A stretch of 64,000 nt of DNA from Gammaproteobacteria bacterium (GTDB lineage: Bacteria; Pseudomonadota; Gammaproteobacteria; Steroidobacterales; Rariloculaceae): positions 1,135,987 to 1,199,986 of the forward strand of contig OY761822.1 in assembly GCA_963664945.1 (NCBI GenBank), read 5' to 3'. Every line of letters starts with the position of its first letter. Position 1 is the stretch's first letter. Position numbers and translations under genes: made by a program. Below the pieces are notes generated by a model. That model saw nothing but the letters and a program-made list of their open reading frames with translations. It was not told the origin of the DNA and did no database searches. Shown piece by piece: positions 13,450 through 42,697 of this stretch.

Positions 13450-13549
13450 ATGGTTCCAATAAGTTGTAGGTATAATCGTGTTCTGGGTGCGTTTGAACAG
13501 TAACGAAAAATGCAGCCCAAAACGTAGGCTAAACCGACTTATCTTGATG

Positions 13550-14203: not shown

Positions 14204-14429
14204 ATTCTCCCTCATATGTTCGAAATATTGCGAAGACGTACATAGCCCATTAGCATAGACTTCGATGGAAGTCAAAGTTGCAGTTGGCAGCCTAGTGGAC
14301 GAATGCTACGCTGGATCGTCACATTGGGGGCGAATGGGGATCTGTTCCCCCGTTACCCTCCGGTAACGGGCAATGAACGGCGGAAACAGACACACCAGTC
14401 GTGAATTCCCGGGCCACGTCGGACGGTCG

Positions 14430-14499
14430 GCCGGTCGATCAGCCGTTTTCGGCGGGGCGGCCTTCCGCCCCATGCAGCAGAGCTTTCGCCGCGGGCTGC
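14430..14499 (+). repeat. Copy 1 of a ~70-nt repeated leader element containing the hairpin GGGGCGG-CCTT-CCGCCCC (partner at 48577..48645)
   Basis: gccggtcgatcagccgttttcggcggggcggccttccgccccATGcagcagagctttcgccgcgggctgc. It ends in the first codons of the DUF6152-like gene. Confidence 0.7.
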
Positions 14500-15545: not shown

Positions 15546-15609
15546 CGCGCGGGTTTCGTCAGAACAGAAAGATGGCGCCGAGCCATGTCAGGCCAACGGC
15601 GGCTTCGCT

Positions 15610-16533: not shown

Positions 16534-16562
16534 GGCAGGCGGTAATATAAACTGACAGCGTT

Positions 16563-16622
16563 CCGGTGTGCCTGCCGGTGTGCCTGCCGGTGTGCCAGCC
16601 AGCGTGCCAGCCGGTGTGCCGG
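16563..16622. repeat. 5 x 12-bp tandem repeat (CCGGTGTGCCTG consensus) in the xerD / acyltransferase divergent intergenic region
   Basis: ccggtgtgcctg ccggtgtgcctg ccggtgtgccag ccagcgtgccag ccggtgtgccgg, read directly. Confidence 0.9.
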
Positions 16623-16688
16623 GTGCGAATTGCTCATGGCCATTGCGGTCCCAGCTTGCCATAGCGACGGTTCCGCGGAAACGAATTA

Positions 16689-17450
16689 ATGCTATGTTCA
16701 GCCTCCGTGACTCTCCGGAATCTGAAATCAATGCTGGCGCGGGCGGTTTACGGCCCCTACGTGTGGCTGATGCTGGCGGCCGCGGTGATCCCGACGCTGG
16801 CGCTGCTTCTGGTCACGCCGACGCTCGGCGCACGGCGGCATGTTGCTCACCGGGGCGCCCGGGTCTTCTTTCTGCTCATCGGCAGCCCCATCCGGATCGA
16901 AGGCGCCGGCAATCTTCCGGACGAACCCTGCGTCGTGGTCGCCAATCATGCCAGTTACCTGGACGGGATCATCCTCAAGGCCGCTTTGCCACCGCAATTC
17001 ACCTTCCTGATCAAGGCTGAAATGACGTCCGTACCGCTGGCGGGTTTCCTCCTGAAACGCATCGGTTCCGCATTTGTGAAACGCGGGGAGACCTCTCACC
17101 GGCTCAGGACGGGGCGCCGCCTGCTCAAGGGCGCCATGCAGGGTGAATCGCTGGCATTTTTCCCCGAGGGCACCTTCGACGGCAACCCGGGATTGAAGCC
17201 CTTTCGTCCGGGGGCTTTTGCTGCGGCGTGGCGGGCCGGATTGCCCGTCGTACCCATTGTCATCAGCGGTTCCCGGCACATGCTGCCCGCGCAAGTCTGG
17301 CTGTGCGCGCCGGCGCGAATATCCATTACGATATGCGAACCTGTCGATTCCGGAGTCCTCGAATCGGCTTCGGAATTGTCAGCGGTCAGCCGCACCCGAA
17401 TGCTCGAATATCTTGGGGAGCCCGACCTTCAGAAGGTAGACTCGAGATGA
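16689..17450 (+). CDS. Lysophospholipid (1-acyl-sn-glycerol-3-phosphate) acyltransferase family protein
   Basis: NHASYLD (HX4D block) and FFPEGTFDG blocks with an N-terminal TM segment. The start may be 16689 or 16731. The stop overlaps the next gene's start (ATGA at 17447..17450). Confidence 0.8.
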   Translation: MLCSASVTLRNLKSMLARAVYGPYVWLMLAAAVIPTLALLLVTPTLGARRHVAHRGARVFFLLIGSPIRIEGAGNLPDEPCVVVANHASYLDGIILKAALPPQFTFLIKAEMTSVPLAGFLLKRIGSAFVKRGETSHRLRTGRRLLKGAMQGESLAFFPEGTFDGNPGLKPFRPGAFAAAWRAGLPVVPIVISGSRHMLPAQVWLCAPARISITICEPVDSGVLESASELSAVSRTRMLEYLGEPDLQKVDSR

Positions 17451-19745: not shown

Positions 19746-21497
19746 ATGGCATTCGGCGTTTCTGGAGCGGCACCGATCAACGCGCTCGTGGAGCAAGCGC
19801 TGCACCGATTGTCGCGAGGCGAACCGCCCGAAGGCATCGAGATGGAGCGGGTTGACTTCAAGGAGGAGCGGGGCCGGCGGGGTCCCGGAGGAACCGTTTC
19901 CCCTGGCGAGACGACCAACGAGCGTGCCGCCGACCACCTGGCGGCGGAAATGGCTTGCATGGCAAATACTCCGGGCGGCGGTGCGGTCATTGTAGGCGTC
20001 GCCGACGATGGCGACCGAATAGGTACGCGGCTCGACGCGGACTGGCTCCGCCATCGCATCTGGGAACTCACCTCGCATCAACTGACGATCGCGGTTGGCG
20101 AGGCACGACTTGACGAATGCCGCCTCTTGATCCTGACCTGCATCGAGGCGCTTGCGCCCGTCCGGTACGGCGGAAAGTTGCGGTGGCGGGTGGGTGCCAA
20201 CTGTGTCGAAGTCGATCCGGTCGTCTGGCAATCGCGGATGCTGGAGAGGATCGGTTTCGACTGGTCGGATCAGGCTTCCGGTCAGACCCTGGACGATGTG
20301 AGCCCGGGCGCCATCGAGGTCGCCCGACGTTACCTTCGGGAAGCGAACGGCGACGATTCCGACACCAGTCTGGCCAACGCCACCGACGCCGATCTTCTCC
20401 GGCGGCTGAATCTGGTCAAGGACTCGCGCGAACTCACCAACGCGGGGTCGCTGTTGTTCGTAGCGACTCCGTGGCCGGGGGTCGACTACATTCGCCGCGA
20501 CATGCCGGGGGGCGACAGCACCCTTCGCATCGAGGGTGCCGGACCGCTGCTCGTGCAAGTGCGCGAGGTCGAGCAGGCGAGCGAGGTGGCCAACCGTGTG
20601 ACGCACACGGCCGAGGGTTTTGCCCAAGGCAGGGTTCGGGCGATCCCTCCCAGGACGCTGCGCGAGGCCATCGTGAACGGTCTCGTCCACCGCGACTGGC
20701 TGGCGCCGCGGCCCACCGTCATCGAGCATGTCGGCGATACGCTGACCGTGACCTCGCCCGGCGGGTTCGTGGGCGGCGTAACGCCCGACAACATCATCAC
20801 CCATCCGGCGGTTCCCCGTTACCGAAACCTGTCCGAAGCCATGGCCGCCTTGGGTCTGGCCGAGCGCGAGGGGATCGGGGTCGACAGGATGGTGCGCGAC
20901 ATGCTCGCCATCGGGCGGCCCGCTCCGGTCATTGCCGAGGTTGACGGACCCTACGTGCGGGTCGCGCTGCTCGGCGGCGACCCCGATACCGCCGTCATCG
21001 ATCTGGTGGCTGCGCTAAACCCCGCATGGGCCAGCAATGTGGAGTCGCTTCTACTCATTGCACACATGACACGGCACGGTTGGGTGGACGCGGAGTCAGC
21101 GACTCCGCTTCTCCAGCGATCGTCGGTGGAAGAAGCCGAGCAGGCGATCCGCCGACTGGCAGATGCGCGCTTGGGCACCGATGATCCGGCCTCCGTGATC
21201 GCACGCGTGCAGGGGATTCCCCCTCACCTGCCCGATGCGTTTCGTCTATCCGACACGGTGCGGGGCCGGCTCGCCCACCGGGGCGCTTCGCCAAGCGTCC
21301 CCGAAAGCCGCGAAGCGCTCGTTCTGGAATGGTGCCGAGCCCGGGGACGTGTCTCCTCGACCGAGGTCGCCGACCTGACGGGGTTAAGCAAGGTCTACGC
21401 CGGCAAGCTCCTGACCAGGCTGGCCGCTGCCGGGCAACTCACGGCGGGGAGGCCTGTGCGCAGGGGCCGGGGATTCTTTTACGTTCTGGCTGAGTAG
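19746..21497 (+). CDS. AlbA_2 (Schlafen-like) + HATPase_c_4 + C-terminal wHTH protein (putative ATP-dependent DNA-binding regulator / defence-associated)
   Basis: EMERVDFKEERG.. and ..MANTPGGGAVIVGVADDGDRIG (AlbA_2 pattern). REAIVNGLVHRDW..THPAVPRYRNLSEAMAALGLAEREGIGVDRM (HATPase_c_4 pattern). C-terminal VSSTEVADLTGLSKVYAGKLLTRLAAAGQL (wHTH-like). Confidence 0.75.
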   Translation: MAFGVSGAAPINALVEQALHRLSRGEPPEGIEMERVDFKEERGRRGPGGTVSPGETTNERAADHLAAEMACMANTPGGGAVIVGVADDGDRIGTRLDADWLRHRIWELTSHQLTIAVGEARLDECRLLILTCIEALAPVRYGGKLRWRVGANCVEVDPVVWQSRMLERIGFDWSDQASGQTLDDVSPGAIEVARRYLREANGDDSDTSLANATDADLLRRLNLVKDSRELTNAGSLLFVATPWPGVDYIRRDMPGGDSTLRIEGAGPLLVQVREVEQASEVANRVTHTAEGFAQGRVRAIPPRTLREAIVNGLVHRDWLAPRPTVIEHVGDTLTVTSPGGFVGGVTPDNIITHPAVPRYRNLSEAMAALGLAEREGIGVDRMVRDMLAIGRPAPVIAEVDGPYVRVALLGGDPDTAVIDLVAALNPAWASNVESLLLIAHMTRHGWVDAESATPLLQRSSVEEAEQAIRRLADARLGTDDPASVIARVQGIPPHLPDAFRLSDTVRGRLAHRGASPSVPESREALVLEWCRARGRVSSTEVADLTGLSKVYAGKLLTRLAAAGQLTAGRPVRRGRGFFYVLAE

Positions 21498-21685
21498 GGG
21501 GAATGAGCGGGGTCGTCATGTGGTGGTGTGGTGGGAACGTGGATGCGCTTCGGGGAGGGCGGCTCGTGCCTCGTCCGACGATCTCGGGCGGTCCGAGGAC
21601 ACGAATTGCGGCGATATCGACTAAATTGATCATTTTGAGAACGAACTCCACGGGCTTCGAATTCAGACGACTATCACGCAAGACT

Positions 21686-23929
21686 TCACCGCTTGTTATC
21701 GGTGATTTCCCTTGCCAACGCTGGCAGTGAGGCGAGGTCAAGGCGACTATGTATTGTTTCCTCGCGGAGCAGATGTTCACCAAGGAAACGGTCGTATTTT
21801 TCCACGATCAGGTTCTGTCCACCCGATAAGACGCTTTCTGCATCCACAGACTTCGAACCGGCGATTTGTCGAAGCGCTGTTTCTACCGGTTCAACGTTTT
21901 CCTCATGGTCCACGTCAATAAATCCATCGAAAGCCGTCGTTCGATATCCTTTCGTCCGCAATGCCAGAGCGAGTGTCGATGTCTTCATCGTCCCCGCCCA
22001 GGTTGCGATCAGGCGACTTCGCTCACCGATTTCGCAGATTTGCCCTGTGTCCAATCGAAGCCTGCGGTACTGATGTCGCGCGTCGTCGAGTATCCGTACG
22101 GAGTTCTGGTCGAGATAAATCGGTACGTGCGCACCGGCCAATACCGCCCTCATCTTTTCCACGACCTTGTCATGGATCAAGCCCCCGCTTCCGCCGAAAC
22201 GAGGAGGTCGGCCCGTCCGATCGGCAACGACTTCAATCTCCTTCTCCTTGTCATGAATCGCCTTGATGCGCCAACGTCGTCCGGAAAATACGATCGTCAT
22301 CTTGGGCGCGAGCACCATGCTGACCGGAAGGGTTCCCAAAGTCTTGCGGTTGTGGGTGATTCTGAATTCTTCAGGTGTCTGAAACACCGCGTAGAAGCTG
22401 TAGTGCTCGACGATCCGCTCGCCCTGAGGTCCCAGCAGCAATACGCCGTCCGGCGCCTGTTCCACCAATGCCACGTCCCTCTCGCCAAGGCGTCTGAGCA
22501 GACGCGCGAAAAGCCCGGCATCGACGCGCTTGAACGGACCGCGCACACACAGCGTGACGAACAGTTGTTTGGCCCTCGCTCCGCCGTGCTCGGCTATGAC
22601 CGATAGAATCTGGTGTGTGAGCGTGGACAGGTGAAGCGCTTGCGGGGCCGGCGGCTCACACCACTTCTCGATCAGCAACTCCACCATTGCAATTGAACGC
22701 ACAAGTCTCAAGTGAAGCCGATCAATCGGATGACAATTGCCCCCGGGTTCATCCTCTATCGCATACATCCGCAGTACGGCCGCTTCGCCGCTGCGGCGCC
22801 CCGAGCGACCCAGACGTTGCCGGAGCGAGGCGACAGAGAACGGCGGTCCGACCTGCGCCACGCATTTGATCGCGCCGATGTCTATCCCAAGCTCAAGTGT
22901 CGATGTGCACACGGCCGTTGCGGCCGCACGCGTCTTCAGCCGCTTTTCCAGGTCTGTCCGGTGCATGCGGTCCAGATTGGCGTGATGTGGAAAGAACTCC
23001 ACCGGCACACGCGCCCGCTCCGACATGTCGCGCAGCGCGTCCGCGTACCATTCCACGTTCTGGCGAGATCCCGCGAAAACCAGGTTTCGGCTGCCGCGCA
23101 GCCTGTGGAACAGGTGCCGTGCCACGGCCCGTTGCGCCGCAAACGCCTCCTCGCCGGATTGCCCGTTCCTCGCCTGCTCCGGCTTCTTCATGTACCCGCG
23201 CAGCTGTACCCTGAGTTCCGGTCCTGTCGATTCGCTCTTCAGTAACTCCACTGTCTCGGATGCCTCCGGACGCAGGTACTTGCGAGCCAATTCCATCTCT
23301 CCCAAAGTCGCCGACAACCCGATTCGACGAATTCTGCGACCCACTGAAATTTCCAATCTCGTCAGGAGCGATCGCAGATGAATCCCCCGTTCGTTGTCGA
23401 GCAATGCGTGCAACTCGTCGACCACGACCGCGCGCGTGCTCTTGAACAGCCTGCAAATTTCAAGCCCGCGCAGCACGAAGAGCGCTTCGAGCGATTCGGG
23501 CGTTATCAGCAAGACACCACTCGGGGTCTCCCGCGCGCGTTTCTTGACCCCCCGGCCTATATCCCCGTGCCACGGATGGACCGCCAAGTCCATCTTGGCG
23601 CAAAGGTCTTCGAGACGCCCGAACTGGTCGTTGATCAACGCCCGCAACGGGCCGACATAGACGAGATCGAACCCCCCGTCACCCGGCTTGTCCAGCACCG
23701 AAGAAATCAACGGGAGGAACGCGGCTTCCGTCTTGCCTCCGGCGGTGGCCGCCGCGATGATCACGTCGACCTCTTCCTCCAGCAGCAACGGAATCGCCCG
23801 TTCCTGAATGTCGTGCAGGCTCTCCCAGCCCTTGTTCCAGATCCAGCGCCTGACGGGCGCCGCCAGCAAGTCAAACGATGTCGAGCGTTCAGAGCCTGAA
23901 GGATGCGAGTTCATCGTCCTCCACGTCAT
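21686..23929 (-). CDS. sngC: Lhr-like DEAD/DEAH-box helicase, Shango SngC / BREX BrxHI-like
   Basis: Motif I AATAGGKTEAAFLP, Ia VGPLRALINDQ, II VVVDELHAL, III GLSATLG. 747 aa; overlaps the upstream ATPase gene by 41 nt. Confidence 0.8.
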   Translation of the reverse strand: MTWRTMNSHPSGSERSTSFDLLAAPVRRWIWNKGWESLHDIQERAIPLLLEEEVDVIIAAATAGGKTEAAFLPLISSVLDKPGDGGFDLVYVGPLRALINDQFGRLEDLCAKMDLAVHPWHGDIGRGVKKRARETPSGVLLITPESLEALFVLRGLEICRLFKSTRAVVVDELHALLDNERGIHLRSLLTRLEISVGRRIRRIGLSATLGEMELARKYLRPEASETVELLKSESTGPELRVQLRGYMKKPEQARNGQSGEEAFAAQRAVARHLFHRLRGSRNLVFAGSRQNVEWYADALRDMSERARVPVEFFPHHANLDRMHRTDLEKRLKTRAAATAVCTSTLELGIDIGAIKCVAQVGPPFSVASLRQRLGRSGRRSGEAAVLRMYAIEDEPGGNCHPIDRLHLRLVRSIAMVELLIEKWCEPPAPQALHLSTLTHQILSVIAEHGGARAKQLFVTLCVRGPFKRVDAGLFARLLRRLGERDVALVEQAPDGVLLLGPQGERIVEHYSFYAVFQTPEEFRITHNRKTLGTLPVSMVLAPKMTIVFSGRRWRIKAIHDKEKEIEVVADRTGRPPRFGGSGGLIHDKVVEKMRAVLAGAHVPIYLDQNSVRILDDARHQYRRLRLDTGQICEIGERSRLIATWAGTMKTSTLALALRTKGYRTTAFDGFIDVDHEENVEPVETALRQIAGSKSVDAESVLSGGQNLIVEKYDRFLGEHLLREETIHSRLDLASLPALAREITDNKR

Positions 23930-25190
23930 CCCCGGAACCGCTCATGTCATCCCCGAAGTCCTTGCTTATTTCCACGCCGCCGATCAGACCGCGCCAGTCC
24001 GTGCCCGGGTTTTGCTCCAGCACCGAGAGCAGATTCACAAAAGCCGTCACCGTGGTCCGGGGCGTTTGGAAATAGGCGTTCCCGATTCGCTTTGAGCAGT
24101 GCGTCATGAACGCGGTCAACGCCTCGTCCGGGAAGGTGCTGTCGTCGCCAAAGACAACGCGCCGAATATTCGTGAGCAGAACGAACATGTCCTCCGGTGT
24201 CAGGCTCGCGAGCCTGACGACAGGTCCTGCAAGATCGACCAACCCGGCTCGAGCGAACGTGTTCTCCGCCAGCCGCGACTGCAACGCTTCGTAGCTGTAC
24301 AAGCCCCGACGGGTGTCCATCAGAAACTCGGGCGTCCCACCGAGCATGAACCCGAGATGCCTTGCCGTACCCTGCAGAACGTCGTTCAGGATGCGCAAGA
24401 TCTGCTCGTAGTTGGAATTTCGTGCCCGAGAGGAGGTCAACTTATACAGATTCACCAATTCGTCCAGTGAAACGACCAGTCCCCGATAGCCCGCTTTTCG
24501 AACAAACAGCGCGAGCAGCTTCAGATGGTCGTAGACATTGGCATCATGGATGATCGTTCGCACGCCGAGGGCCTTTCGGGCGTCCGTTCGGGTTGAAAAC
24601 TCCGCCCGGAGCCAGCGTATCGCGGCGGACTTCAGTGCCTCGTCACCGCGCTCGTAACCCTCCCAATAGCGCACGATCACGGTGGTGAAGTCGTACCCGC
24701 CGGTCAGCTCCTCAAGCTGTCCCAGGCTCTCGCGCATGACTGCATCCGGACTTCGGTCGGCCGCCTCCGCCTTGCGCAAGGACGCAGTGGCGAAGCGTTC
24801 GACAATCGATGTCATCGCTCCCCCATCGGGTTTGGTCCGAGTGGAAGCGTTGCGGGCCATTTCCGCATAAAGTGAACGCGCTTGCCCTCCCGTCGCATGA
24901 AGGCGGCGGTCCGGCGCCATATCCGCCGAGAGCACGACCATGCCCTTTTCCATCGCGATCAAGCGAGTCAGGTTGAGAAAAAACGTCTTTCCCGACCCGT
25001 ATTCGCCGATGATGAATCGAATCGCGGCGCCACCTTCATCGATCCGTTCGATGTCCCGCAGCATTTCCTGTACTTCGCGAGACCGCCCGACCTGGATGTG
25101 CTGCAGCCCAAGCTTGGGCACTACACCTGCGCGCAGCGCCTGTATGATCGAATCCCGGTCGCGTCGCTTCAGCCTTCCTCTTGCCTGCAT
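23889..25190 (-). CDS. sngB: DUF2791-family P-loop ATPase, Shango SngB / BREX BrxD-like
   Basis: IIQALRAGVVPKLGLQHIQVGRSREVQEMLRDIERI..FIIGEYGSGKTFFLNL (Walker A). 433 aa; SD aaggaag lies before the ATG, 11 nt after the sngA stop. Confidence 0.8.
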   Translation of the reverse strand: MQARGRLKRRDRDSIIQALRAGVVPKLGLQHIQVGRSREVQEMLRDIERIDEGGAAIRFIIGEYGSGKTFFLNLTRLIAMEKGMVVLSADMAPDRRLHATGGQARSLYAEMARNASTRTKPDGGAMTSIVERFATASLRKAEAADRSPDAVMRESLGQLEELTGGYDFTTVIVRYWEGYERGDEALKSAAIRWLRAEFSTRTDARKALGVRTIIHDANVYDHLKLLALFVRKAGYRGLVVSLDELVNLYKLTSSRARNSNYEQILRILNDVLQGTARHLGFMLGGTPEFLMDTRRGLYSYEALQSRLAENTFARAGLVDLAGPVVRLASLTPEDMFVLLTNIRRVVFGDDSTFPDEALTAFMTHCSKRIGNAYFQTPRTTVTAFVNLLSVLEQNPGTDWRGLIGGVEISKDFGDDMSGSGDDVEDDELASFRL

Positions 25191-25201
25191 GCTGAACTTC
25201 C

Positions 25202-27415
25202 TTAACTTTTCAACTGTTTAATCACGTCCGGATTGAGTTCAAATCCTTCATATTCCTCGATCAGGGCATCGTCGAACCGTTCGTAAGACCACTCGTTCAG
25301 CGATTCGAGCGCGCCATCTTGCATGAGTTGAAACCGCCCCGCCAACTTGCCCAAATCGGACTCCTCCCAGTGCGGCCGCGTCAGCAGCTCGTCAAGAAAT
25401 GCACCAAGCCTTGCATCGAGTCCCGGAAAGAGCCCGTTTGTACTCTCAACCGATTCTTCTTTTTCTTCGTCCGCCTCTTCGTCCTCGAAAATCTCTCCCA
25501 AGACGGACGATACGCGAGCGGTATCCGCCATCAGGGAAGCGATCCGCTCCGTGTTCAGTTCAACACGATGGTCGTGATCCGGAGCGGCGGGGATTGTAAA
25601 TTCTCCCGACCTTTTGGACGCCGACCGAACGGTGACCGGCCCGCCTGTCGCCGAATGCGCATGCAGACTCGAATAGATATCCCCGGTGGGCAAACCGATG
25701 GCCTTGAACAGCCTTTCGATCGCCTTGATCTCCTGGGGATCGATCACGCCGTCCGTCGCCGCCATGGCAAGCGCCAGATTGCCGAGTCGCCGACGCACTT
25801 CCTCCGACGCATCCTTCAGGCGCCGACGAAGCAAGCCCAAGTCCAGCGGCACGGACAACATCCACTTCAGGTTGGCATGAAGTCGAACGCTTTCTGCCGC
25901 CGGCAAATCCGCTCCGTCAATCCGCGCCTCCAGCGTTCGTCGCTCTTTTTCCTGGATGGCGCCGTCGGCGTGCGCAACGAAGCTTCCCAACGCAATGGAC
26001 ACAAGCAGCGTCTTGTACCTGTTGCTCACTTGTTCAAGCTTCGTGATTCCCCCGGGCAGGCGAAAAAGAACGACGGGTTCGCCCAGCTTCGGGCTGCGCA
26101 GGGCGAATCGAGGATCGGGGGCCATGCCAATCGATAGCCGGGCCAGCGCGTCAGCCGCACCGGTCAGTTGGCGTTTGCTCGTTTTCTCCGGCACCGAGCC
26201 TTCGAGCTGCCTGATGACCTGCTCAACCGCTGCCAGCCCGTCTTTTTCGATTATTCCGGTCGCCCAATCACGCAGATTCTCCATTTCCGTGCACGGGAAC
26301 AGATGCCAGATGCGTTCGGGCAAGAGCGCGTGGCCTTCAATGGTGGCACGTCCTTGAGGGTTGCGTCCCAGAAAACGACTGTATTTGTCGAGCTCACTGG
26401 TGGTAGTCTCCACCAACTTCTTCGCAAGGTTTGTTGTTCTTGTTGTACGCGATATGTCTGGAATATCGCCAACGAACCTTGTCAGACCAACGACAAACTC
26501 CCCGGAAGCCGCACTATATGTGGCACGAATCATTCGTTTCGGTGCTGCGACTTTTAACCCGTGTGGATATTTTTCGTCGAAAAGCACGTTGAACAACGCC
26601 CGACACTCTGGAAACGCCCGTTTCATCGGCATGCGCACCCTGGTTTCCGGATGCAGCATGTACCAACTGAGCACCCAGTCCGCGCTCAATCGCTCGCCTA
26701 GTTTGAGCTTCTGGCCGATAACGACGCGCAGGTCCAGCGGTAGTTCGTAATTCGTTCTTTCAAAACAAGGTTCGAAATCGGCTCCAATTGCCCGGTTGTT
26801 GATGATCCGCGCAGTTTCCAAGAATGTCCCGAAGTAGCGGCGAATCGAATTATTCTCCCCATATAGGCCGAGCAAGCGTTCGATTTCTGTCACGATTTGC
26901 CGGCTTTCTTCGGCAGGAGGCTCGTCTACAAAAAGTCTTCGTTCCATTCCGTAGAAAAAGAGGAAGACATACCCCGCACCAATTCTCCGATCCGAGCGTC
27001 CGCCCGCAAGCCAGTCCAGATAGGTTCCACGCGCCCGTGGCCCGATTTCGGTGTAGTTGGGCCAATATGGCATGGTGTTTCCGGAAAGATCTAATCCCCC
27101 TTGGTAGACCACCAAGCGCGGATTGATGATGCCGCGGCGCCAACCGCCGTCGGTCCGCGGTGCTTCGCCCACGTATACCATCCCGTCGATGGCACGGCCG
27201 GCAACGGTAACGGTGGTACCGAGTGGAACCCAGCCCGCCTTTGGCCGCGCTTGACGCGTGACACTGTCCACAGATAATGCTTGGGTACTTTTTGGCGCCG
27301 ATACCTTTCGTTTCTTGCCCGAATGCGTGGGCTTCCCAGTCTCCCCCTCAATAAAAACCAGAATTACAACCGCTAGCACGCCTATCACCGCGCCTATCAC
27401 CAAGAGAGCGTCCAT
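25202..27415 (-). CDS. sngA: TerB-N / TerB / TerB-C multidomain protein with an N-terminal TM helix, Shango SngA-like
   Basis: MDALLVIGAVIGVLAVVILVF (TM). WVPLGTTVTVAGRAIDGMVYVGE..YWPNYTEIGPRARGTYLDWLAGGR..YVFLFFYGMERR (TerB-N). ..FVAHADGAIQEKERRTLE..MAATDGVIDPQEIKAIERLFKAIGL (TerB). C-terminal ..LLTRPHWEESDLGKLAGRFQLMQDGALESLNEWSYERF (TerB-C). Confidence 0.8.
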   Translation of the reverse strand: MDALLVIGAVIGVLAVVILVFIEGETGKPTHSGKKRKVSAPKSTQALSVDSVTRQARPKAGWVPLGTTVTVAGRAIDGMVYVGEAPRTDGGWRRGIINPRLVVYQGGLDLSGNTMPYWPNYTEIGPRARGTYLDWLAGGRSDRRIGAGYVFLFFYGMERRLFVDEPPAEESRQIVTEIERLLGLYGENNSIRRYFGTFLETARIINNRAIGADFEPCFERTNYELPLDLRVVIGQKLKLGERLSADWVLSWYMLHPETRVRMPMKRAFPECRALFNVLFDEKYPHGLKVAAPKRMIRATYSAASGEFVVGLTRFVGDIPDISRTTRTTNLAKKLVETTTSELDKYSRFLGRNPQGRATIEGHALLPERIWHLFPCTEMENLRDWATGIIEKDGLAAVEQVIRQLEGSVPEKTSKRQLTGAADALARLSIGMAPDPRFALRSPKLGEPVVLFRLPGGITKLEQVSNRYKTLLVSIALGSFVAHADGAIQEKERRTLEARIDGADLPAAESVRLHANLKWMLSVPLDLGLLRRRLKDASEEVRRRLGNLALAMAATDGVIDPQEIKAIERLFKAIGLPTGDIYSSLHAHSATGGPVTVRSASKRSGEFTIPAAPDHDHRVELNTERIASLMADTARVSSVLGEIFEDEEADEEKEESVESTNGLFPGLDARLGAFLDELLTRPHWEESDLGKLAGRFQLMQDGALESLNEWSYERFDDALIEEYEGFELNPDVIKQLKS

Positions 27416-27677
27416 ACCAATCTCGCTGACCAGCTATTTAAAAGTAGCGCGAGCCCCTACGTCCAAGACGAGGAACCATGTTCGGAAAAAGGTGACAAGA
27501 ACCAAAACGACAATAATCGTGATCAGAGTAGTCAGACTGCTATCCTCCGGGCTGTAACGAAACTACCTTGTACCAGACATCTCACCGGTATTTTGTGCTG
27601 TCTTTTGAACAATGGCGCAGCCAAATCCGCTGATTGGCGGTAATTCCTTGAGTCGTGGGTCCGTTACGATTCTTCGT

Positions 27678-28295
27678 TTACGCGACAGCCTCGGCGACGG
27701 CGTCATAAAACACGGAGAAACTGCGGGATCGATTTCTCGCCGGATTCAAGTGTTCGCCAATTGCGGCGCCGGCCTGCCTTTTGGCCAACCCGGACCTGTA
27801 GTAACCGTGTTGCTTCAGGACCCGCTCGAATGCTTCCCATGTGCCGCCGCTGATGGCGTCTGGGTTCCGGTAGCGAGCTTGATTTGGAACAGTAGACGAT
27901 ACGTTCGGATAGGTTGCGCAAACCGCTGGCCAATCGCCGAAATACCAGGCTTCCAGTTCTTCGATCGCGATCCTTGTTACGACTTGCCAATCGGGCCTCC
28001 CGGCAACTCGTCTCGACCGGAGCCCAGCATGTTCACAGATGTCCTCGATCCTTGACTTGAGTTGTTCGCAGTCTTCGTTGTCCCGGTCCACGATCAGCAC
28101 GATTCGATAATCCGGTGGCAACCATGTGGAATAACCGTTGAGCCGATCCCCAATTCTTTTGAGGAGCGCGTGTTTGCCTTGATAGGGAAAAACCTGAAAG
28201 GTGACATCCTCCGGCAGCATCCTTGGCAACGCGGCTTCGAGAAATGCTTCCATGGAAACTTCTTCGACATGGAATTCCAAATGGGAAGCGGGCAT
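27678..28295 (-). CDS. DUF4276-like protein (Toprim-like candidate nuclease), partner of the ABC ATPase
   Basis: Start moved to MPASHLEFHVEEVSMEAF.. (ATG 28295, one nt after the ATPase stop). Acidic N-terminal Glu cluster and IVLIVDRDNEDC (DxD). 205 aa. Confidence 0.7.
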   Translation of the reverse strand: MPASHLEFHVEEVSMEAFLEAALPRMLPEDVTFQVFPYQGKHALLKRIGDRLNGYSTWLPPDYRIVLIVDRDNEDCEQLKSRIEDICEHAGLRSRRVAGRPDWQVVTRIAIEELEAWYFGDWPAVCATYPNVSSTVPNQARYRNPDAISGGTWEAFERVLKQHGYYRSGLAKRQAGAAIGEHLNPARNRSRSFSVFYDAVAEAVA

Positions 28296-28296
28296 A

Positions 28297-29535
28297 TCAG
28301 TTGCCAACTCCTTCACGGACCGGCATTCCGCCACGGGTCAGCGGATCGCCGACGCCGAAATGCCCCTCCATCCACAAGTCCCCCAACTGGGCGCCGGCGT
28401 CCATGAATGCCTTCACCTTGTCGTTACTGCTCAGCGAGTGACACTTCGTGTAGCCGGATTCATCGCGCCAGAGGACACGCACTTCATTCGGCCGTAGCGC
28501 GTCCAGGAAAAACGGCGAATGTGTGGTCACCAGAATCTGTGTCGACTCGGTGGCTGCACGGCATTCTTCCGCCAGGTCGTAGAGCAGGCGAGGGTGCAGA
28601 AAGTTTTCCGGTTCCTCGATACCGATAAACGGCGGCGGATCGGGATCGTTCAGCAAGATCAGATAGGACAGCATCTTTAGCGTACCGTCCGAAGCAAAGC
28701 GGGCCATCACAGGCTCAGCAAATGGGCCGTCCTTGATTTGCAGCAGCAGTCTTCCGTCCGGCATCGGGTTCGCCGATACACATTGAATCTTGGGGACCCT
28801 TTCCCTGAGCCTTTTGAAAATAAAATTCAGGCGGTCGTTGTGTTCCTCGACCAGGTACTGGATGACATTGGCCAGATTGTGCCCGGTCTTGCTCAGGCGT
28901 TCCTGCGGTCCGGCTTCCGGTTGTCCCCTCGCATCATCGGACGACAGATAGGACACGTGCCATCCTATGATGAAATCCCGCAGCGCGACGACGCGGGGGT
29001 TCTCGGCCAACTGACCGAGCGCATTGACGGCGAGAGTATCTGAAGACCTCAGGCGGACGCGGACCCGCCTATCTTGTGCATCCGGCAATTCTCCCGAAAC
29101 GACTCTCCCATCGCCGTGAGCGTAGTCGAGAAACCTGAAAGGCGCTCCGCGGCGATGCCGCTTCCATCGAAGCCATTCCTTCACCACTACGGGTCTACCG
29201 TTCGACTCATCCACTTCAAGATGATAGGTGGTCAGCGGCTGGCCCGGTTGTTCGCGATAGGCAATTTCGACGAGGATCGGCCCGCTGCCCCCACGTGATT
29301 TCAATTCACGTGCCCTGCCGCGCTTTTCCCATGCACGGCGCAGACCGTTCTCGAAGCTTTCCGCGAGAAAGGCAAAGACATCGAACACTGTGGATTTTCC
29401 GCTGCCGTTCGGACCCAGCAGCACGGTAAGCGGCGAGAGATTCCTTAACTCGACATCTCTCAATGCACGGAAATTCTGTATCTTGAGGCGCTCGATGCGA
29501 GGCGGCGCAGCGTCAGTGGAAATCATCTGGTTCAT
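28297..29535 (-). CDS. OLD/SMC-type ABC ATPase (AAA_15/AAA_21-like)
   Basis: Start moved to [44 protein letters not shown] (Walker A). ..[18 protein letters not shown] (Walker B / D-loop). ..[12 protein letters not shown] (H-loop). 412 aa. Confidence 0.8.
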
Positions 29536-29670
29536 ATCGTCATTCCGTGAAGCTGGGGGGCCAAGTTTCCGTCGATTGCCCGGAAACGAAATTCGGCAAG
29601 AGTGTATCGCACAGAAGTCCGCAGGGGGATTCACAATAACAGCCAGAAGGCTTGACTGTAGTTTGGCTGC

Positions 29671-29771
29671 GCCCGAACAATACCGGCGACATGAACGATT
29701 CCGTTACCCCAACGCGCGGGACGCTGGTTCTGGTCCGCCACGGCCAGAGCGAGCGAACGTGGGTGGCGTGA
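29671..29771 (+). pseudogene. Duplicated 5' end of gpmA (promoter-proximal 20 nt plus the first ~21 codons), ending in a premature stop
   Basis: gcccgaacaataccggcgacATGaacgat is identical to 31539..31567. It encodes [26 protein letters not shown], compared with authentic [25 protein letters not shown].. Confidence 0.8.
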
Positions 29772-29798
29772 GCCGCCAACCTGAGTATTTAGGTCCCG

Positions 29799-31287
29799 AT
29801 GAATTCGCAGATTGCGCAACTGGCGGCTGAGCTGCGGGCGGACGTCCGCGCCGGAATGACCGTCGCGAGCCTGTCGGCCGGTGTCACGTCGGGACTTGGG
29901 CTACTCGTTGCCCAGATCGCCTTCGCGACATTCATATTTTCGGGTCCATTGGCTCCGTACTCGTCCCAGGGCGTGGGTCTGGTGCTGTTCGGGAATTTCG
30001 CGGCCTGCCTGACCCTGGCTCTCGCCGGGAGCTATCGGGGCGTGATCGCCGGGCTGTCTCCGGCGCTGGTCATCGGCATGGCCGTGATCGGCTCTTCCAT
30101 GGACGCGACAGGCGATGCGCTGTTCGTCACGGCATCCGCAGCGCTCATTCTCAGTGCCGTGGTCACCGGTGCGGCTTGCCTGATGATCGGGCGGTTCCGG
30201 CTCGCCAATCTGCTGCGGTTCATTCCCTATCCGGTTTCGGCGGGATTCGTCGCCGGCATCGGCGGCGCCGTCTGTCTGGCCGCGATGACCCTGATGGGAG
30301 CGGAGCCTGTCTGGAGCGGCATTGTGCTGATTTTCGTCACCATCATCGCCTTTGGACTCCTGGAAGGCGTCGGCGTCGGCATGCTGGCTACGCTGGTGTT
30401 CTTTGCCGTGCGTCTCAGCCGCGTCGATGCCATCGAGTCCCGCTTTTCCGCGCGGGAGCGCCGCAGCAGGAAGACCCGGCCCGTACCGGAGCGCGCCATC
30501 CTGCTGGAAGAAGGCGAGCGCGTGCACGTCTACCAACTGCGCGGCTACGTCTTCTTCGGCAGTGTGGCGCCCCTTGCCGACCGGCTGAGAATGTCGCTCC
30601 GCGGCTCATCGCGTCCCGCCTGCCTGTTGCTGGACTTTGCCGCCGTCTCGGGTTTCGACTATTCGGCGGCAAACGTGCTCGGGCGATTGCTGCAGAAGGC
30701 CAATGCGGCTGGCGTACAAGCTCGTCCTGGGCGCCTTGCCGGAGCGGCTGAAGGCAAGACTGGAACGCAACGTCCCGGCGCCGGGTTTTGCAGAGTTCCT
30801 TGTCGAGGCAGACGGGGACGCCGCCCTCGAACGCTGCGAAGAGATTGTGATTGCTCAGTGGCGGGAAAACCCCTCCGAACTCCAGCGCGCCGCGCTGCTG
30901 GAGCAGGCCGGGGACGACCTCGAGCGCTATCTTGAACGCCAGATCGTTTTCGAGGCACTGATGGAGGAGCTGGAGCGCTGGCTGGACCCTGCGGACTACG
31001 CCGACGGGGAGACGTTGGCCGGAGCGGAAACTCCGCCGCAGGACTTGCAATTGCTGGTCGCGGGCCGGGTCTCCGCCTACGACTCGGCGGGTACACGACA
31101 GCACCAGCGCGGGCCCGGCGATGCCGTCTGGCCGGTGGATGCCGTGAGGCACAAGATAGTCGCGGTGGTCGCCGACGGACCTTGCAGGACTTTGGCATTG
31201 AGCAACGCTTCCCGGGACTGGCTGGAAACGCATCGCCCGGGACTCGCGCTCAAACTGTATCGCTATCTTCTCGCAGGTCACTGGTAG
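29799..31287 (+). pseudogene. Decayed SulP-family anion transporter-STAS-cNMP-binding gene (frameshift near 30710-30720, shortened TM domain)
   Basis: Frame 1 (29799..) gives SulP TM segments and the STAS start ..VHVYQLRGYVFFGSVAPLADRL..LLLDFAAVSGFDYSAANVLGRLLQKANAAG. The sequence then continues in the +1 frame (30637..31287 ORF) as ..KLVLGALPERLKARLERN.. plus a cNMP-binding-like tail. The TM region is only ~215 aa against the ~400 expected. Confidence 0.65.
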
Positions 31288-31438
31288 TTTTCGCCCCGGC
31301 GAGCGGAGCGTTGACGGACAGGGCAAAAGGGGTTTTCCATGCAAGTAGTGAACCCGGCGACGCCGGCCCGCGGACGGTAGGGAACAAACGACCGCCTCCA
31401 AGAGAAAATCAAGGAGTTACGTATTTGTTCCATGGAAG
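31288..31438 (+). repeat. Copy B of the pnuC leader region (inverted partner at 38157..38311), running from a TAG stop to ATGGAAG
   Basis: ..tttccatgcaagtagtgaacccggcgacgccggcccgcggacggtagggaacaaacgaccgcctccaagagaaaatcaaggagttacgtatttgttccATGgaag aligns by hand with the reverse complement of 38157..38263. Confidence 0.8.
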
Positions 31439-31520
31439 GCTGCCAGCCAGGACTGCCGCAGGTTGAAAGCCCTCGTGGGTAGCGGCAGCGCGCGCAAGGA
31501 CTGACCGTTCAGCCGTTCGC

Positions 31521-31558
31521 TTGATCTGCGTTCACTTTGCCCGAACAATACCGGCGAC
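31521..31558 (+). promoter_or_regulatory. Candidate gpmA promoter, implying a very short or absent 5' UTR
   Basis: TTGATC (31521..31526), 17-nt spacer, AACAAT (31544..31549), then 9 nt to ATG 31559. No SD is visible. The duplicated copy has TTGACT (29652..) with similar spacing to the same AACAAT. Confidence 0.35.
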
Positions 31559-32326
31559 ATGAACGATGCGACTTCCCGAAATCCCGGCACACTGGTCCTG
31601 GTTCGCCACGGCCAGAGCGAGTGGAACCTCAAGAACCTCTTTACCGGCTGGACCGACGTGGATCTCACGGACCGGGGCATTGGTGAGGCGCGGGCGGCCG
31701 GTGTCGCGCTAAGGGAAGAAGGCATCGCCTTCGACATCGCCTTTACCTCCGTCCTGACCCGCGCCATTCGTACCCTGTGGCAGATCCTCGATGAGATGGA
31801 TCTCATGTGGATCCCGATGCATCGCGACTGGCGTTTGAACGAGCGCCACTACGGGGCGCTGCAGGGCCTCGACAAGGCGGAGACAGCAGCACGCCACGGG
31901 GCCGATCAGGTGAAGATCTGGCGCAGGTCGTACGACATACTCCCGCCCGCCCTGAGCGACGATGACAACCGGCACCCTCGGTTCGATCCCCGCTACCGGG
32001 GGCTGGACGAAACGCACCTCCCGGCCACAGAATCCCTGGCGACGACGCTGGCACGCGTTGAGCCGTGCTGGGAGAGGTGTATCGCGCCGCAGCTTCGCGC
32101 CGGCCGCCATGTTCTGGTCGCCGCTCACGGTAACAGCCTCAGGGCGGTGGCAAAGATGCTCGAGGGAATTTCCGATCAGGCGATAACGGAGTTCAACATC
32201 CCCACCGGCGTGCCGCGCGTTTACGAATTCGATGCGCAGCTTCACCCGTTGCGGGGGGAGTACCTGGGCGATCCCGATGCCATCGCCGCGGCGGCCAGGG
32301 CCGTGGCGGATCAGGCGAAGGGATGA
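31559..32326 (+). CDS. gpmA: 2,3-bisphosphoglycerate-dependent phosphoglycerate mutase
   Basis: [45 protein letters not shown]..; 255 aa. Confidence 0.95.
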
Positions 32327-32960: not shown

Positions 32961-34031
32961 ATGAAGAAATTGACCGTACTCTTGGCGCCGGCGCTCCTGG
33001 CGCCCTGGATATCGTTACACGCACACCATTCGACCGCATCGTTCTTCTTTCTCGACCAGCGCATCAGCGTCGAGGGGAAGGTAGTCGAGTTCCACGCCCG
33101 CAATCCTCACGGCCTGATCGTGTTCGACGTGGTCAACGAGGCGGGCGAAACCGAGCGCTGGCGCGCCGAGATGCCGGCCTGGCAGGCGCTGCTGCGGTGG
33201 CTCGGCTGGTCGCCGGGGGATCTGCAGCCCGGCGACCAGATCGTCATCCACGGCGCGCCGCCGCGCATGAACGAGTCCTTCAGCATCCGCGCCGACGATG
33301 TCGTGATGCCGGACGGCTGGACGCGGCACCTGTTCCGCGACCCGGTCACGGGCAAGTACCGCGAGCCCACCCCGCCGCCCATGGTGGTCGCCGAACTCGA
33401 CGGCGTTTGGGAACTCAATCGCGGCTGGACGAATCACCCGGACGACAATCCGGATACCTATGAGCGCACCGACTTTCGGCCCTGGACGCTGCCCGCGGTA
33501 CTGGCGGCATGGGAGGCACGCGACCCCCTGAGCGACCCGAAGCTTGAATGCGAGCCGCCCACCGTCTCGGCGGCCATGTCGGGCATTCATGCGATTGCCA
33601 TCGATCAGTCGGGCGAGCACGTCAAGCTGTTTGCCGAGGCATTCGACGTGGATCGTACCGTCTACATGGATGGGCGGTCCCATCCGGGAGAGGATGCGCC
33701 GCACACCAATCTTGGCCACTCCGTCGGCAGGTACGACGGGGACACGCTGGTGGTGGATACCACGCACATCACCTCCGGTTGGAGTATCGGGCCCGGTGGT
33801 CCTCCCCACAGCGACCGGTTACAGGTCGTGGAGCGCTACCGCGTAATCGAAGACGGTCGGTTGCTTGAACAGGCGATCACCGTGGAAGATCCCCTGACAC
33901 TGACCCAGCCGGTGACTTATGTGCAGCACCTGCGCAGGGCGCCGATCCACGAACTGGTGCCCTACGACTGCATGCCGCTGAATACGGACCGCGGCGAGGA
34001 ATTGACGCCGGAGGAGTTCTACCAACCCTGA
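32961..34031 (+). CDS. Secreted DUF6152-like protein, long form (paralogue 3 of 4)
   Basis: MKKLTVLLAPALLAPWISLHA|HHSTASFFFLDQRISVEGKVVEFHARNPHGLIVFDV.. plus the shared C-terminal domain (..GHSVGRYDGDTLVVDTTHI..). Confidence 0.75.
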   Translation: MKKLTVLLAPALLAPWISLHAHHSTASFFFLDQRISVEGKVVEFHARNPHGLIVFDVVNEAGETERWRAEMPAWQALLRWLGWSPGDLQPGDQIVIHGAPPRMNESFSIRADDVVMPDGWTRHLFRDPVTGKYREPTPPPMVVAELDGVWELNRGWTNHPDDNPDTYERTDFRPWTLPAVLAAWEARDPLSDPKLECEPPTVSAAMSGIHAIAIDQSGEHVKLFAEAFDVDRTVYMDGRSHPGEDAPHTNLGHSVGRYDGDTLVVDTTHITSGWSIGPGGPPHSDRLQVVERYRVIEDGRLLEQAITVEDPLTLTQPVTYVQHLRRAPIHELVPYDCMPLNTDRGEELTPEEFYQP

Positions 34032-34120: not shown

Positions 34121-34555
34121 TCAATTCGCCTCGAGGTCTTCCAGCGACCCCGTGCCCTGGGGCGAATAGAAGGTAGCCACATCGCCGCTGGGCAGGAGCG
34201 CGTGGGTGATGCGCAGCATGGTCGCGCCGTTGCGGCCCGGATTGCCCCTTATCGTGACTGTATCGCCGGGTTGAATCATGTCACGCTCCACACCGTTGCG
34301 GCGCATCATGTTGTTGGCGGGAAGTTCGGCGATCCACTCCGTCGCAGTGCCGTCTGCGTCGGTCATGGTGTAGACGAATCGGCCGTGAGGATTGGCCGGC
34401 GTGAAGGACACGGCGGTAACGTCGCGATGGATGACGACTGCCCCAAAATCGAAGTAGTGCCCCGGATTGTGGTGGGCGGCAACGGATGCCGCAGCCAACA
34501 ATCCAAACATCAGCAAACCGGGGAGCAGGGGATGTCGTGCAGACTTCATTCTCAA
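34121..34555 (-). CDS. Secreted DUF6152-like protein, short form (paralogue 4 of 4)
   Basis: MRMKSARHPLLPGLLMFGLLAAASVAA|HHNPGHYFDFGAVVIHRDVTAVSFTPANPHGRFVYTM..; 144 aa; convergent with paralogue 3. Confidence 0.7.
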   Translation of the reverse strand: MRMKSARHPLLPGLLMFGLLAAASVAAHHNPGHYFDFGAVVIHRDVTAVSFTPANPHGRFVYTMTDADGTATEWIAELPANNMMRRNGVERDMIQPGDTVTIRGNPGRNGATMLRITHALLPSGDVATFYSPQGTGSLEDLEAN

Positions 34556-37557: not shown

Positions 37558-38163
37558 TCACGCGGCGTCCGCCAGATATTCTCGCCTCCAACGCCGGTAG
37601 CCAACGACAGCCATGACCAGGTAGAACACGAACAGCAGGGCGGTCAGGTAAAGCTCTCTGGCCACGTAAAGATAGACGGCGATGCTGTCGATGACGAACC
37701 AATACAGCCAGTGCTCCAGCACCTTTTGCGCCACCATGAAGGTCGTCACGATGGCCGCCACGGTGATGAAGGCTTCGGCGTAAGGGAAGGCGGTGTCGGT
37801 CATGCTCATGATCCAGCCCAGGAGCAAGGCGGCGGCGCCGGTTCCTGCGATCACCTGAATGTGGCGGACAATCGACAAGGTGTGAATCCGCACCCCGGCG
37901 CCTTCGTCCCCGGCGTAACGCCACTGGTACCAACCGTAAATTGCCATGCCCACGTAGAATATCTGCAGCGCGGATTGCATGTAGAGGAGGGCGGAATAGA
38001 AGACCCCCATGAAGATCAGGGCGCTGGTCATCCCAGCCGCCCAGCAAAGGATGTTCTGGTGTATGGCCAGCACCAGATAGGCGATGGCCAGCAGGACCGC
38101 CGCCGTTTCGGGAATGGACAGCGTCGAGAAGGCGGCAACTAGATATTCGAGCATGGCTTCCAT
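37558..38163 (-). CDS. pnuC: PnuC-family nicotinamide riboside / vitamin transporter
   Basis: Start moved to MEAMLEYLVAAFSTLSIPETAAVLLAIAYLVLAIHQNILCWAAGMTSALIFMGVFYSALLYMQSALQIFYVGMAIYGWYQW..; multi-TM; about 201 aa. Confidence 0.85.
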   Translation of the reverse strand: MEAMLEYLVAAFSTLSIPETAAVLLAIAYLVLAIHQNILCWAAGMTSALIFMGVFYSALLYMQSALQIFYVGMAIYGWYQWRYAGDEGAGVRIHTLSIVRHIQVIAGTGAAALLLGWIMSMTDTAFPYAEAFITVAAIVTTFMVAQKVLEHWLYWFVIDSIAVYLYVARELYLTALLFVFYLVMAVVGYRRWRREYLADAA

Positions 38164-38311
38164 GGAACAAACACGTAACTCATTGATTCTCTGTTGGAGG
38201 GCGGTCGTTTGTCCTCTCGCGTCCGCGGGCCGGCCGCCGCCGGGTTCACTGCTTGCATGGAAATACTCGTTTCCCTCCGCGTCAGCGCACCGGCGACCGG
38301 AGCGAAAATCG
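38157..38311 (-). repeat. Copy A of the pnuC leader region (authentic, between the DUF77 stop and the pnuC start)
   Basis: Minus strand reads TAGcgattttcgctccggtcgccggtgcgctgacgcggagggaaacgagtatttccatgcaagcagtgaacccggcggcggccggcccgcggacgcgagaggacaaacgaccgccctccaacagagaatcaatgagttacgtgtttgttccATGgaag. Confidence 0.8.
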
Positions 38312-38584
38312 CTAGATACCCAGATCCGGAGGCTCGTCAAGCGGCAGGTCGACGTTCAGAAACTTGACCACCAGTGCCTGCGATCCGCCGTTCTCAAAGG
38401 ACCGCCGCAGGCCCGTCTCGACCGCCCGGCATACGTCGCCGAGCTCACCGGTGAGCTGGGTACTCATCTGGTTGACGCGGATCCGCAGGCCCGGCATATC
38501 CTGGATTACATGGATGAAGGATTGAACAGCGGGAATATAGTCGTCCGTCAGGGGATACAGGCTGAGCTCGGCGGTGATTCGCAT
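38312..38584 (-). CDS. MTH1187/YkoF-family (DUF77) small ligand-binding protein
   Basis: MRITAELSLYPLTDDYIPAVQSFIHVIQDMPGLRIRVNQMSTQLTGELGDV..; 90 aa ferredoxin-like family associated with thiamine/HMP binding. Confidence 0.75.
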   Translation of the reverse strand: MRITAELSLYPLTDDYIPAVQSFIHVIQDMPGLRIRVNQMSTQLTGELGDVCRAVETGLRRSFENGGSQALVVKFLNVDLPLDEPPDLGI

Positions 38585-42652: not shown

Positions 42653-42697
42653 CTCTTTCTCTAGCAGCCATCGCCCCGGCGAGCGGAGCGAAAACTG

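Follow-up and report, generated by a model that had tools for sequence, protein, structure and literature searches.

In a window of 64,000 nucleotides (nt) of a gammaproteobacterial chromosome (assembly GCA_963664945.1, contig OY761822.1, positions 1,135,987 to 1,199,986; coordinates below count from the first letter of the window), the start of the phosphoglycerate mutase gene gpmA is present twice, as a direct repeat next to an acquired defence island. The copy next to the island is a foreign gpmA allele, the copy at the intact gene is the native one, and the DNA between them belongs to the genome itself. The best reading of this arrangement, which we consider likely, is that two alternative occupants of one chromosomal hotspot were stacked in tandem, by homologous recombination on the left side and an illegitimate join on the right. 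A first-pass annotation, made from the letters of the window, had tied the duplication to the acquisition of an island, and this connection was borne out: the duplication is a by-product of that acquisition. The locus is a well-resolved example of a type of event already known, namely a scar left by recombination at a defence hotspot.

Two gpmA alleles in direct repeat

A repeat search returned an ungapped direct repeat of 83 nt at 29671-29753 (copy 1) and 31539-31621 (copy 2), with 70/83 identical positions (84%) and a spacing of 1868 nt. This is the duplication of 83 base pairs (bp) that the first-pass annotation had aligned by hand; the computed alignment of the two copies is significant (BLAST, E = 3.6e-12), which excludes an alignment error. 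The succession of an identical, a diverged and a nearly identical (28/30) segment described there was also recovered, with 0/29, 11/24 and 2/30 differences respectively, and the clustering of these differences is non-random (permutation P = 2.5e-4). Within the 64 kb, the 29-mer and the 30-mer each occur exactly twice when up to three mismatches are allowed (0 expected in shuffled sequence), and neither blastn-short (word size 7) nor the 3-mismatch pattern search revealed a third copy in the window. Gapped local alignment did not extend the repeat past 83 nt. A shared −35 element was considered as part of the repeat and rejected, the apparent −35 of copy 1 belonging to the end of HEC-01, a candidate defence module. 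The features at and around the two copies are listed below; related loci are referred to by L numbers, and all comparator genomes are metagenome-assembled.

29652-29681, + strand: promoter-like site TTGACT-18-AACAAT (promoter scan, 9/12 match)
29671-29753, + strand: copy 1, a gpmA stub of the L163 type, comprising the −10 element and short leader through codon 21 (77/83 to L163)
29691-29771, + strand: dead-end open reading frame (ORF) of 26 codons opened by copy 1, its stop being the TGA of the junction TGAG
29754-29768: filler CGAACGTGGGTGGCG, 15 nt, between gpmA +62 and the TGAG junction
31514-31621, + strand: native gpmA promoter including copy 2, TTGATC-N17/18-AACAAT, with 8 nt to the ATG
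31559-32326, + strand: gpmA, intact, 255 amino acids (aa), 2,3-bisphosphoglycerate-dependent phosphoglycerate mutase family (Pfam His_Phos_1, E = 3e-35)

Copy 2 is identical at 81/83 positions to the gpmA start of L161, an island-free relative, and at 80/83 to that of L162, and the native promoter region is colinear with both of these loci and, from 31514 onward, with the more distant L001. Copy 1 shows 13 differences (70/83) from each of copy 2, L161 and L162, and 6/83 differences from the functional gpmA 5′ end of L163. Its N-terminal tail agrees with the L163 tail MNEAVTPTPG (VTPT in common), from which the resident tail differs, and the synonymous codon choices CTGGTTCTGGTC are common to copy 1 and L163. 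Copy 1 is a foreign allele and copy 2 the native allele, the reverse of the proposal that copy 2 was a replacement 5′ end brought in by an element.

The mosaic of conserved and diverged segments is what two gpmA alleles of separate lineages ordinarily show, with an invariant −10 element and short leader, a hypervariable N-terminal tail and a conserved RHGQSE motif. The sites at which the two copies differ also vary among functional gpmA alleles, the identical 29 nt are invariant or nearly so among the functional gpmA genes of the clade, L161, L163 and L166 do not differ from one another in the −20 to +5 stretch CCCGAACAATACCGGCGACATGAA, and the last 30 nt of the repeat encode the catalytic segment that contains the RHGQSE motif. 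Since the 29-nt identity is clade-wide conservation of the −10 element and short leader, it carries no information on a crossover and does not indicate an att core.

In genome and metagenome scans, gpmA orthologues in syntenic position were found at 160 loci, the closest of which was L001 with 85% aa identity. A family-wide promoter, GTTGATCT-N17-AACAAT-N8-ATG, is present at L001, L002, L006, L041 and L081-L088, and corresponds to 31514-31561 in the window. As about 8 nt separate the conserved AACAAT from the ATG, the gpmA mRNA of this group is suggested to be leaderless or near-leaderless.

Had the genome duplicated its own gpmA promoter and 5′ end locally in tandem, with neutral decay of the unused copy and later insertions, this would explain why the copies lie in direct orientation 1.87 kb apart and why the distal one is non-functional. 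We regard this origin as extremely improbable, given that copy 1 is nearer to the functional L163 allele (6 differences) than to its neighbour copy 2 (13), and that 11/13 of the latter differences are crowded into the hypervariable tail (P = 2.5e-4), a pattern unlike that of uniform decay. An example of true decay is the shorter form of copy 1 in L168, which ends ...CACGGCC|TGAGCC and has scattered substitutions all through the conserved motif.

On its left, copy 1 ends at a deletion junction within the donor-type flank (29671), and on its right (29753) it meets the filler at the seam. Neither gpmA from +63 onward nor the Slfn-like flank of the insert is significantly similar to the 15 nt of filler; a related 15-mer is found at the equivalent place in L162 and is absent from L168. 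The promoter-like site of copy 1 is composite in alignment with L163 and L165, its −35 deriving from the HEC-01 module end and its −10 from the gpmA fragment. The 26-codon dead-end ORF that had been reported at copy 1 was confirmed by translation.

As a separate observation on the intact gene, a stretch of about 240 nt inside gpmA (31839-32078) shows just 68-88% identity to each of the relatives sampled; L161 and L162 agree with one another at about 98% over the part that diverges most (31936-32085). This stretch is probably a recombination tract from an unsampled lineage in a gene otherwise vertically inherited.

The insert, its junctions and the block between the repeats

The gpmA scans gave no relative closer than 85% aa identity, and the informative relatives were retrieved from the contexts of homologues of SulP, HEC-01A and SngB. 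Among these, L161 (a 5.9-Mb contig) is 92-95% identical to the window at nt level over 10242-39869 and has, in contiguous order, acs, a Slfn-like gene, an intact SulP gene (P0001, 739 aa) and gpmA, without 21495-29768. The window differs from L161 in three respects: an insert of 8,274 bp, lesions in the SulP gene and an ectopic segment of 156 nt.

17228-19561: acs, left of the Slfn-like gene (Pfam)
19746-21497, + strand: Slfn/AlbA_2-HATPase_c_4 gene, left hotspot flank, with the truncated end ...FYVLAE* (Pfam)
21491-21494: left TGAG copy (junction compared with the empty site of L161)
21495-29768: insert relative to L161, 8,274 bp, comprising the defence island, copy 1 and the 15 nt of filler
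29769-29798, + strand: right TGAG copy and displaced last 30 nt of the Slfn-like gene, aligning with L161 9971-10000
29799-31287, + strand: native SulP-STAS pseudogene (Pfam STAS; 84% aa identity to the intact P0001)
31283-31438, + strand: ectopic spacer copy, 156 nt (82% identity over 153 nt to 38157-38308, − strand)

The insert lies in the last 10 codons of the Slfn-like gene, 30 nt before the gene end. This gene is colinear with its L161 counterpart up to 21494; the L161 gene is 30 nt longer and overlaps the start of SulP. In comparison with the empty site of L161, GGCTGAGCCGTC, a 4-bp TGAG duplication is found on both sides of the insert. The guanine-cytosine content (GC) of the insert is 0.579, against about 0.64 in the backbone, with 0.55-0.60 in the low-GC stretch left of copy 1. 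No terminal inverted repeats were detected at the insert ends (shuffle P = 0.997), and Pfam and PADLOC searches of all large ORFs in 19.7-31.5 kb found no integrase, transposase or other recombinase. The sole tyrosine recombinase nearby is XerD-like (15610-16731) and is syntenic also in island-free relatives. The window holds no tRNA genes that could act as att sites, and an Rfam scan of 29400-31800 and 38000-38450 gave just sub-threshold chance matches.

The repeats enclose a SulP-STAS gene that is spread over two frames, the pnuC spacer in a 156-nt copy, and the gpmA promoter region. Over 29769-31538 the window and the island-free L161 are colinear, with 94-95% nt identity, and this block has the GC of the backbone (0.645); it is the genome's own DNA and not an acquired element. 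The acquired DNA had been placed here, in the form of a decayed element, and is found instead to the left of copy 1. The comparison with genomes lacking the block, which the first-pass annotation had proposed, turned out the other way round, L161 having the block, with an intact 739-aa SulP, and lacking 21495-29768.

The SulP gene is intact in L161, L162 and L168 and inactivated in the window alone: 681 nt flanked by GGCAT microhomologies are deleted in frame near 30320, and a +1 frameshift lies near 30721. A frameshifted SulP-STAS-cNMP gene and a leader copy had been described at this place; the damaged SulP-STAS gene and the leader copy are present, but a cyclic nucleotide (cNMP)-binding domain was not detected by Pfam in the window copy and is annotated in some homologues only. 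The source of the ectopic segment lies 7 kb away (38157-38308, − strand) and consists of the spacer that separates a YkoF/thiamine-binding-like from a PnuC/NMN-transporter-like gene, with the first PnuC codons. The ectopic copy is also present in L162, is absent from L161 and L168, and has no Rfam match.

Two further observations concern this segment. At the pnuC locus itself, about 85 nt of the spacer segment are specific to the window. An identical 20-mer, TCGCCCCGGCGAGCGGAGCG, occurs at 31291-31310 and at 42671-42690, the latter in a hairpin-like context between MoaE-like and MoaD-like ORFs, and may be a small repeat of the repetitive extragenic palindrome (REP) type.

The first-pass annotation had explained the locus by an element that integrated into the 5′ end of gpmA and brought a replacement 5′ end. 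Worked out on the pattern of SXT at prfC, this model has a site-specific integrative element with a substitute promoter, the repeats as attL and attR and the block as the decayed element. A perfectly identical 29-nt segment does span the start codon in direct repeat, and the home site of the island does abut gpmA in relatives. We nevertheless consider such an origin very unlikely, as the block is native, colinear with the island-free L161 and of backbone GC; the polarity of the copies is reversed, the gene-proximal one being native and the distal one foreign; no integrase is present in 19.7-31.5 kb, and the XerD-like gene is syntenic in island-free relatives; and the 29-nt identity reflects clade-wide promoter conservation. 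The role of gpmA as attachment point of the island holds in part: its promoter and 5′ end form the right boundary of the home site in L163, L166 and L167, but the actual insertion point in the window is the 3′ end of the Slfn-like gene. A deletion between the repeats, which had been expected to restore a clean locus, would take out the native SulP gene and bring the island up against gpmA. With 29 identical nt and a match of 28/30, the repeats come close to the minimum that RecA-dependent exchange requires; such deletions would be rare. For annotation, a caution follows: a repeat over a gene start beside an island resembles an att site, and here the "perfect core" is a conserved promoter.

The insert carries predicted Shango and HEC-01 anti-phage defence systems, assigned by the presence of all three genes of the former and both genes of the latter:

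21558-21597, + strand: 3′ end of a MazE/AbrB-like antitoxin gene, a remnant (97.5% match to the end of an 86-aa PF04014 gene of L162)
21686-27415, − strand: Shango defence system, three adjacent genes on one strand with full-length PADLOC matches
21686-23929, − strand: SngC (PADLOC E = 6e-264; Pfam DEAD/Helicase_C)
23889-25190, − strand: SngB (PADLOC E = 4e-171; Pfam BrxC_BrxD)
25202-27415, − strand: SngA (PADLOC E = 2e-87; Pfam TerB_N/TerB/TerB_C)
27678-29535, − strand: HEC-01 candidate defence pair (PADLOC and Pfam)
27678-28334, − strand: HEC-01B, DUF4276 protein (PADLOC E = 5e-82)
28297-29535, − strand: HEC-01A, AAA_21 ATPase (PADLOC E = 2e-155), with the start MNQMIS as in 412-aa homologues

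The homologues of the HEC-01 proteins share 90-95% aa identity with them, and one SngB homologue (P0241) is 100% identical to the window protein. The antitoxin gene, of which the last 40 nt are left in the window, is intact in L162 and recognisable in L167; this remnant shows cargo turnover inside the island, where the window has Shango and L162 has an SNF2 helicase and a 480-aa protein.

A variable hotspot and the proposed stacking of two occupants

The gene order xerD, acs, variable gap, gpmA, hexapeptide-repeat gene and tesB is conserved in L001, L002, L081 and L085, and partly in L087, in which xerD lies outside the stretch of sequence examined; L161-L163 and L166-L168 share parts of this order. 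In the loci from the gpmA scans the gap upstream of gpmA measures 1.2-7.4 kb and contains ZapE-like, large gdh-like and DUF4143 ATPase genes, and across all compared loci, including L161-L163 and L166-L168, it ranges from 1.2 to 12 kb with differing genes. Because gap size and content differ within a conserved order, a variable hotspot is recognised upstream of gpmA. In the relatives its cargo includes SNF2, BrnT, GmrSD_N, HNH and DUF4143 genes. By its flanks, cargo and composition, the interval from acs and the Slfn-like gene to gpmA is a variable defence hotspot flanked by core genes. It is also a target of insertion sequence (IS) elements: in L168, a genome otherwise like the window, the Slfn-like gene and the left island end are interrupted by two DDE_Tnp_1 elements (13829-15556 and 17472-19268, locus coordinates).

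Several relatives capture other states of this interval. L162 (93-96% nt identity) has the left junction of the window and its TGAG right junction, with a different middle cargo and an intact SulP gene; copy 1 and the HEC-01 module end are deleted there. L168 carries the Shango and HEC-01 island of the window together with an intact SulP gene, and its alignment runs across the left junction. L163 (about 81% nt identity in the backbone) has HEC-01A upstream of gpmA and no SulP gene, with about 380 nt between HEC-01 and gpmA that include a 74-aa ORF and the native −35. In L166 and L167 one gene separates the HEC-01 island from gpmA downstream, again without SulP, and L167 has in addition a Slfn remnant and the left junction of the window. 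In L165, HEC-01 is found in an unrelated context, which delimits the HEC-01 module. The module end is common to the window, L163 and L165 and not to L162, and the 5′ region of HEC-01A in the window is closest to that of L162.

The interval has at least two alternative forms in this clade: an S form, with the Slfn-like gene, the SulP transporter gene and gpmA (as in L161), and an I form, with the Slfn-like gene, a defence island ending in HEC-01, and gpmA, and no SulP (L167 on both flanks; L163 and L166 on the right side). In the proposed stacking, DNA of an I-form relative would have entered an S-form chromosome in an ancestor common to the window, L168 and L162. The SulP gene would not have been replaced by double homologous recombination, the island being added in front of it instead. 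On the left side the incoming DNA would have recombined homologously in acs or the Slfn-like gene. Its right end would have been at codon 21 of the donor gpmA. An illegitimate join, marked by the 15 nt of filler and the 4-bp TGAG overlap, would have attached this end where the heteroduplex, and with it the homology between the I and S forms, stops. Each occupant would thus have come to lie before its own copy of the right flank, copy 1 providing the −10 element, leader and 21 codons of the donor, and copy 2 being the resident, functional one. We infer this mechanism, known as homology-facilitated illegitimate recombination, as well as the direction of transfer; the seam itself coincides with the end of homology between the island-bearing and SulP-bearing forms (TGAG/CC, at the Slfn 3′ end), and the distal junction runs from gpmA +62 through 15 nt of filler to TGAG, with the resident SulP and gpmA kept downstream.

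Later decay would have been independent in the three descendants, with inactivation of SulP in the window alone, erosion of the stub in L168 and its deletion in L162. The stub is old, since it is present and eroded in L168 and deleted in L162, and by parsimony it was already present in an ancestor common to the window, L168 and L162.

The main competitor of this stacking is an insertion of the 8.27-kb unit as a whole into a staggered double-strand break at TGAG, by end-joining or by a transposase acting in trans, without homology. The boundaries are sharp, the TGAG duplication relative to the empty site could be a true target-site duplication, the left flank shows no donor tract, and L168 has active IS elements at the locus. 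We judge it unlikely all the same. For a transposon, terminal inverted repeats and a transposase are lacking and the TGAG duplication alone fits; a landing 1.8 kb from the cell's own gpmA, exactly at the I/S homology boundary, would be a large coincidence (about 4 kb in about 5.9 Mb); and L167 has an identical left junction in an I-only arrangement, which indicates that this boundary predates the stacking.

A number of points weigh against the stacking of occupants, or against details of it. Sliding-window identity over acs and the Slfn-like gene revealed no donor-derived tract in this left flank, over which the window, L161 and L162 are about equally similar; with no donor tract in view, the homologous anchor is a deduction and the staggered-break insertion stays a live rival, the more so as the TGAG duplication and the insertion of one discrete unit fit it as well. 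None of the I-form genomes with a sequenced left flank is close enough for a comparison of the anchor. The direction of the event, island into S form or SulP into I form, is indicated solely by backbone similarity. L163 was rejected as the literal donor, on account of its additional ~380 nt between HEC-01 and gpmA and its ~90% HEC-01 identity, and its region upstream of HEC-01 is just moderately similar to that of the window. A search for a mosaic in HEC-01 gave nothing decisive. Assembly chimeras are a formal possibility in the metagenome-assembled comparators, although four independent assemblies agree.

The stub contains a complete near-leaderless gpmA core promoter. With its intact −10 and a consensus-like −35 (TTGACT) at a spacing of 18 nt, copy 1 may, speculatively, still fire into the upstream ORF and the SulP gene. 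The stub sits where the insert split SulP from its operon (the Slfn-like stop and the SulP start overlap in L161), and for this reason it may be asked whether it was kept for restoring SulP transcription after the insert had cut the operon, a role that we consider doubtful. If true, defence islands bearing flank stubs would carry portable homology and promoters, easing their spread between hotspot variants.

How defence islands without mobility genes travel between chromosomes is an open practical question, for which direct evidence is scarce because clean homologous replacement leaves no trace. The scar described here, a 62-nt coding stub with a core promoter, identifies the type of donor lineage and the previous address of the island, directly upstream of gpmA, and reveals one end of the event to have been non-homologous. 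The empty site, the stacked form and two steps in the erosion of the scar are all represented among five related assemblies.

Some features of the window lie apart from the repeat and the island. A 1.9-kb segment of very low GC (0.45-0.51) between dsbC and a DUF6152 gene (12391-14282) contains an aspartyl-protease-like ORF (12571-13563) and a 197-aa ORF, and is absent from L161, which has instead a sulfotransferase gene adjoining xerD. Pfam detects DUF6152 paralogues at 8451-9578, 14373-15545 and 32961-34031, the last of which is present in L161, L162 and L168 and absent from the more distant L001; a short ORF at 34121-34555 is probably a fourth DUF6152 copy, judging from weak tblastn matches that overlap the DUF6152 genes of relatives.

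Comparison with known systems

Integration into the start of a gene was described, reportedly, by Hochhut and Waldor in 1999 for SXT/R391, which is said to enter the 5′ end of prfC and to supply a new promoter and 5′ end. The window resembles SXT at prfC in having a duplicated gene start beside an acquired island, with the gene still functional. It differs in that the SXT system has an integrase, a short att core, the element between the repeats and an element-borne gene-proximal 5′ end, none of which is supported here. Phage 21 and e14, in work by Campbell and colleagues in the 1990s, reportedly integrate into icd and bring a second version of the gene end, in which substitutions are clustered. 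Common to icd and the present locus is a gene end in two versions, whose clustered differences arose in separate lineages, but at icd the 3′ end is involved, integration is mediated by an integrase and the prophage is left between the copies.

Closer parallels are found among events that involve no dedicated recombinase. Homology-facilitated illegitimate recombination was shown experimentally in several bacteria (PMC3240628), and a homologous anchor combined with an illegitimate distal join, the resident module being kept downstream, has been proposed for effector-immunity arrays of type VI secretion systems (T6SS) and for Rhs orphan arrays (PMC5361080). As in the T6SS effector-immunity clusters of Vibrio cholerae and the Rhs loci, the incoming module here shares one flank and the resident has been pushed downstream, with a fragment of the flank duplicated at the seam and no recombinase. 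The arrays differ in the nature of the parts, which here are a defence island and a transporter gene, with a stub made of a housekeeping promoter and 5′ coding end and not of a toxin-gene end, and in the homologous anchor, which is putative here.

Defence hotspots flanked by core genes and without mobile-element hallmarks have been reported, for example cDHS1 and cDHS2 of P. aeruginosa, for which transfer by flank homology was proposed (PMC10250203). The present hotspot has in common with these its conserved flanks (here acs with the Slfn-like gene, and gpmA), the lack of consistent mobile-element hallmarks and a variable, defence-rich cargo of lower GC (here Shango, HEC-01, SNF2, BrnT, GmrSD/HNH and DUF4143). 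It belongs to another clade and has other flank genes, and it differs also in retaining a stub of its flank, a scar that clean homologous replacement would not leave.

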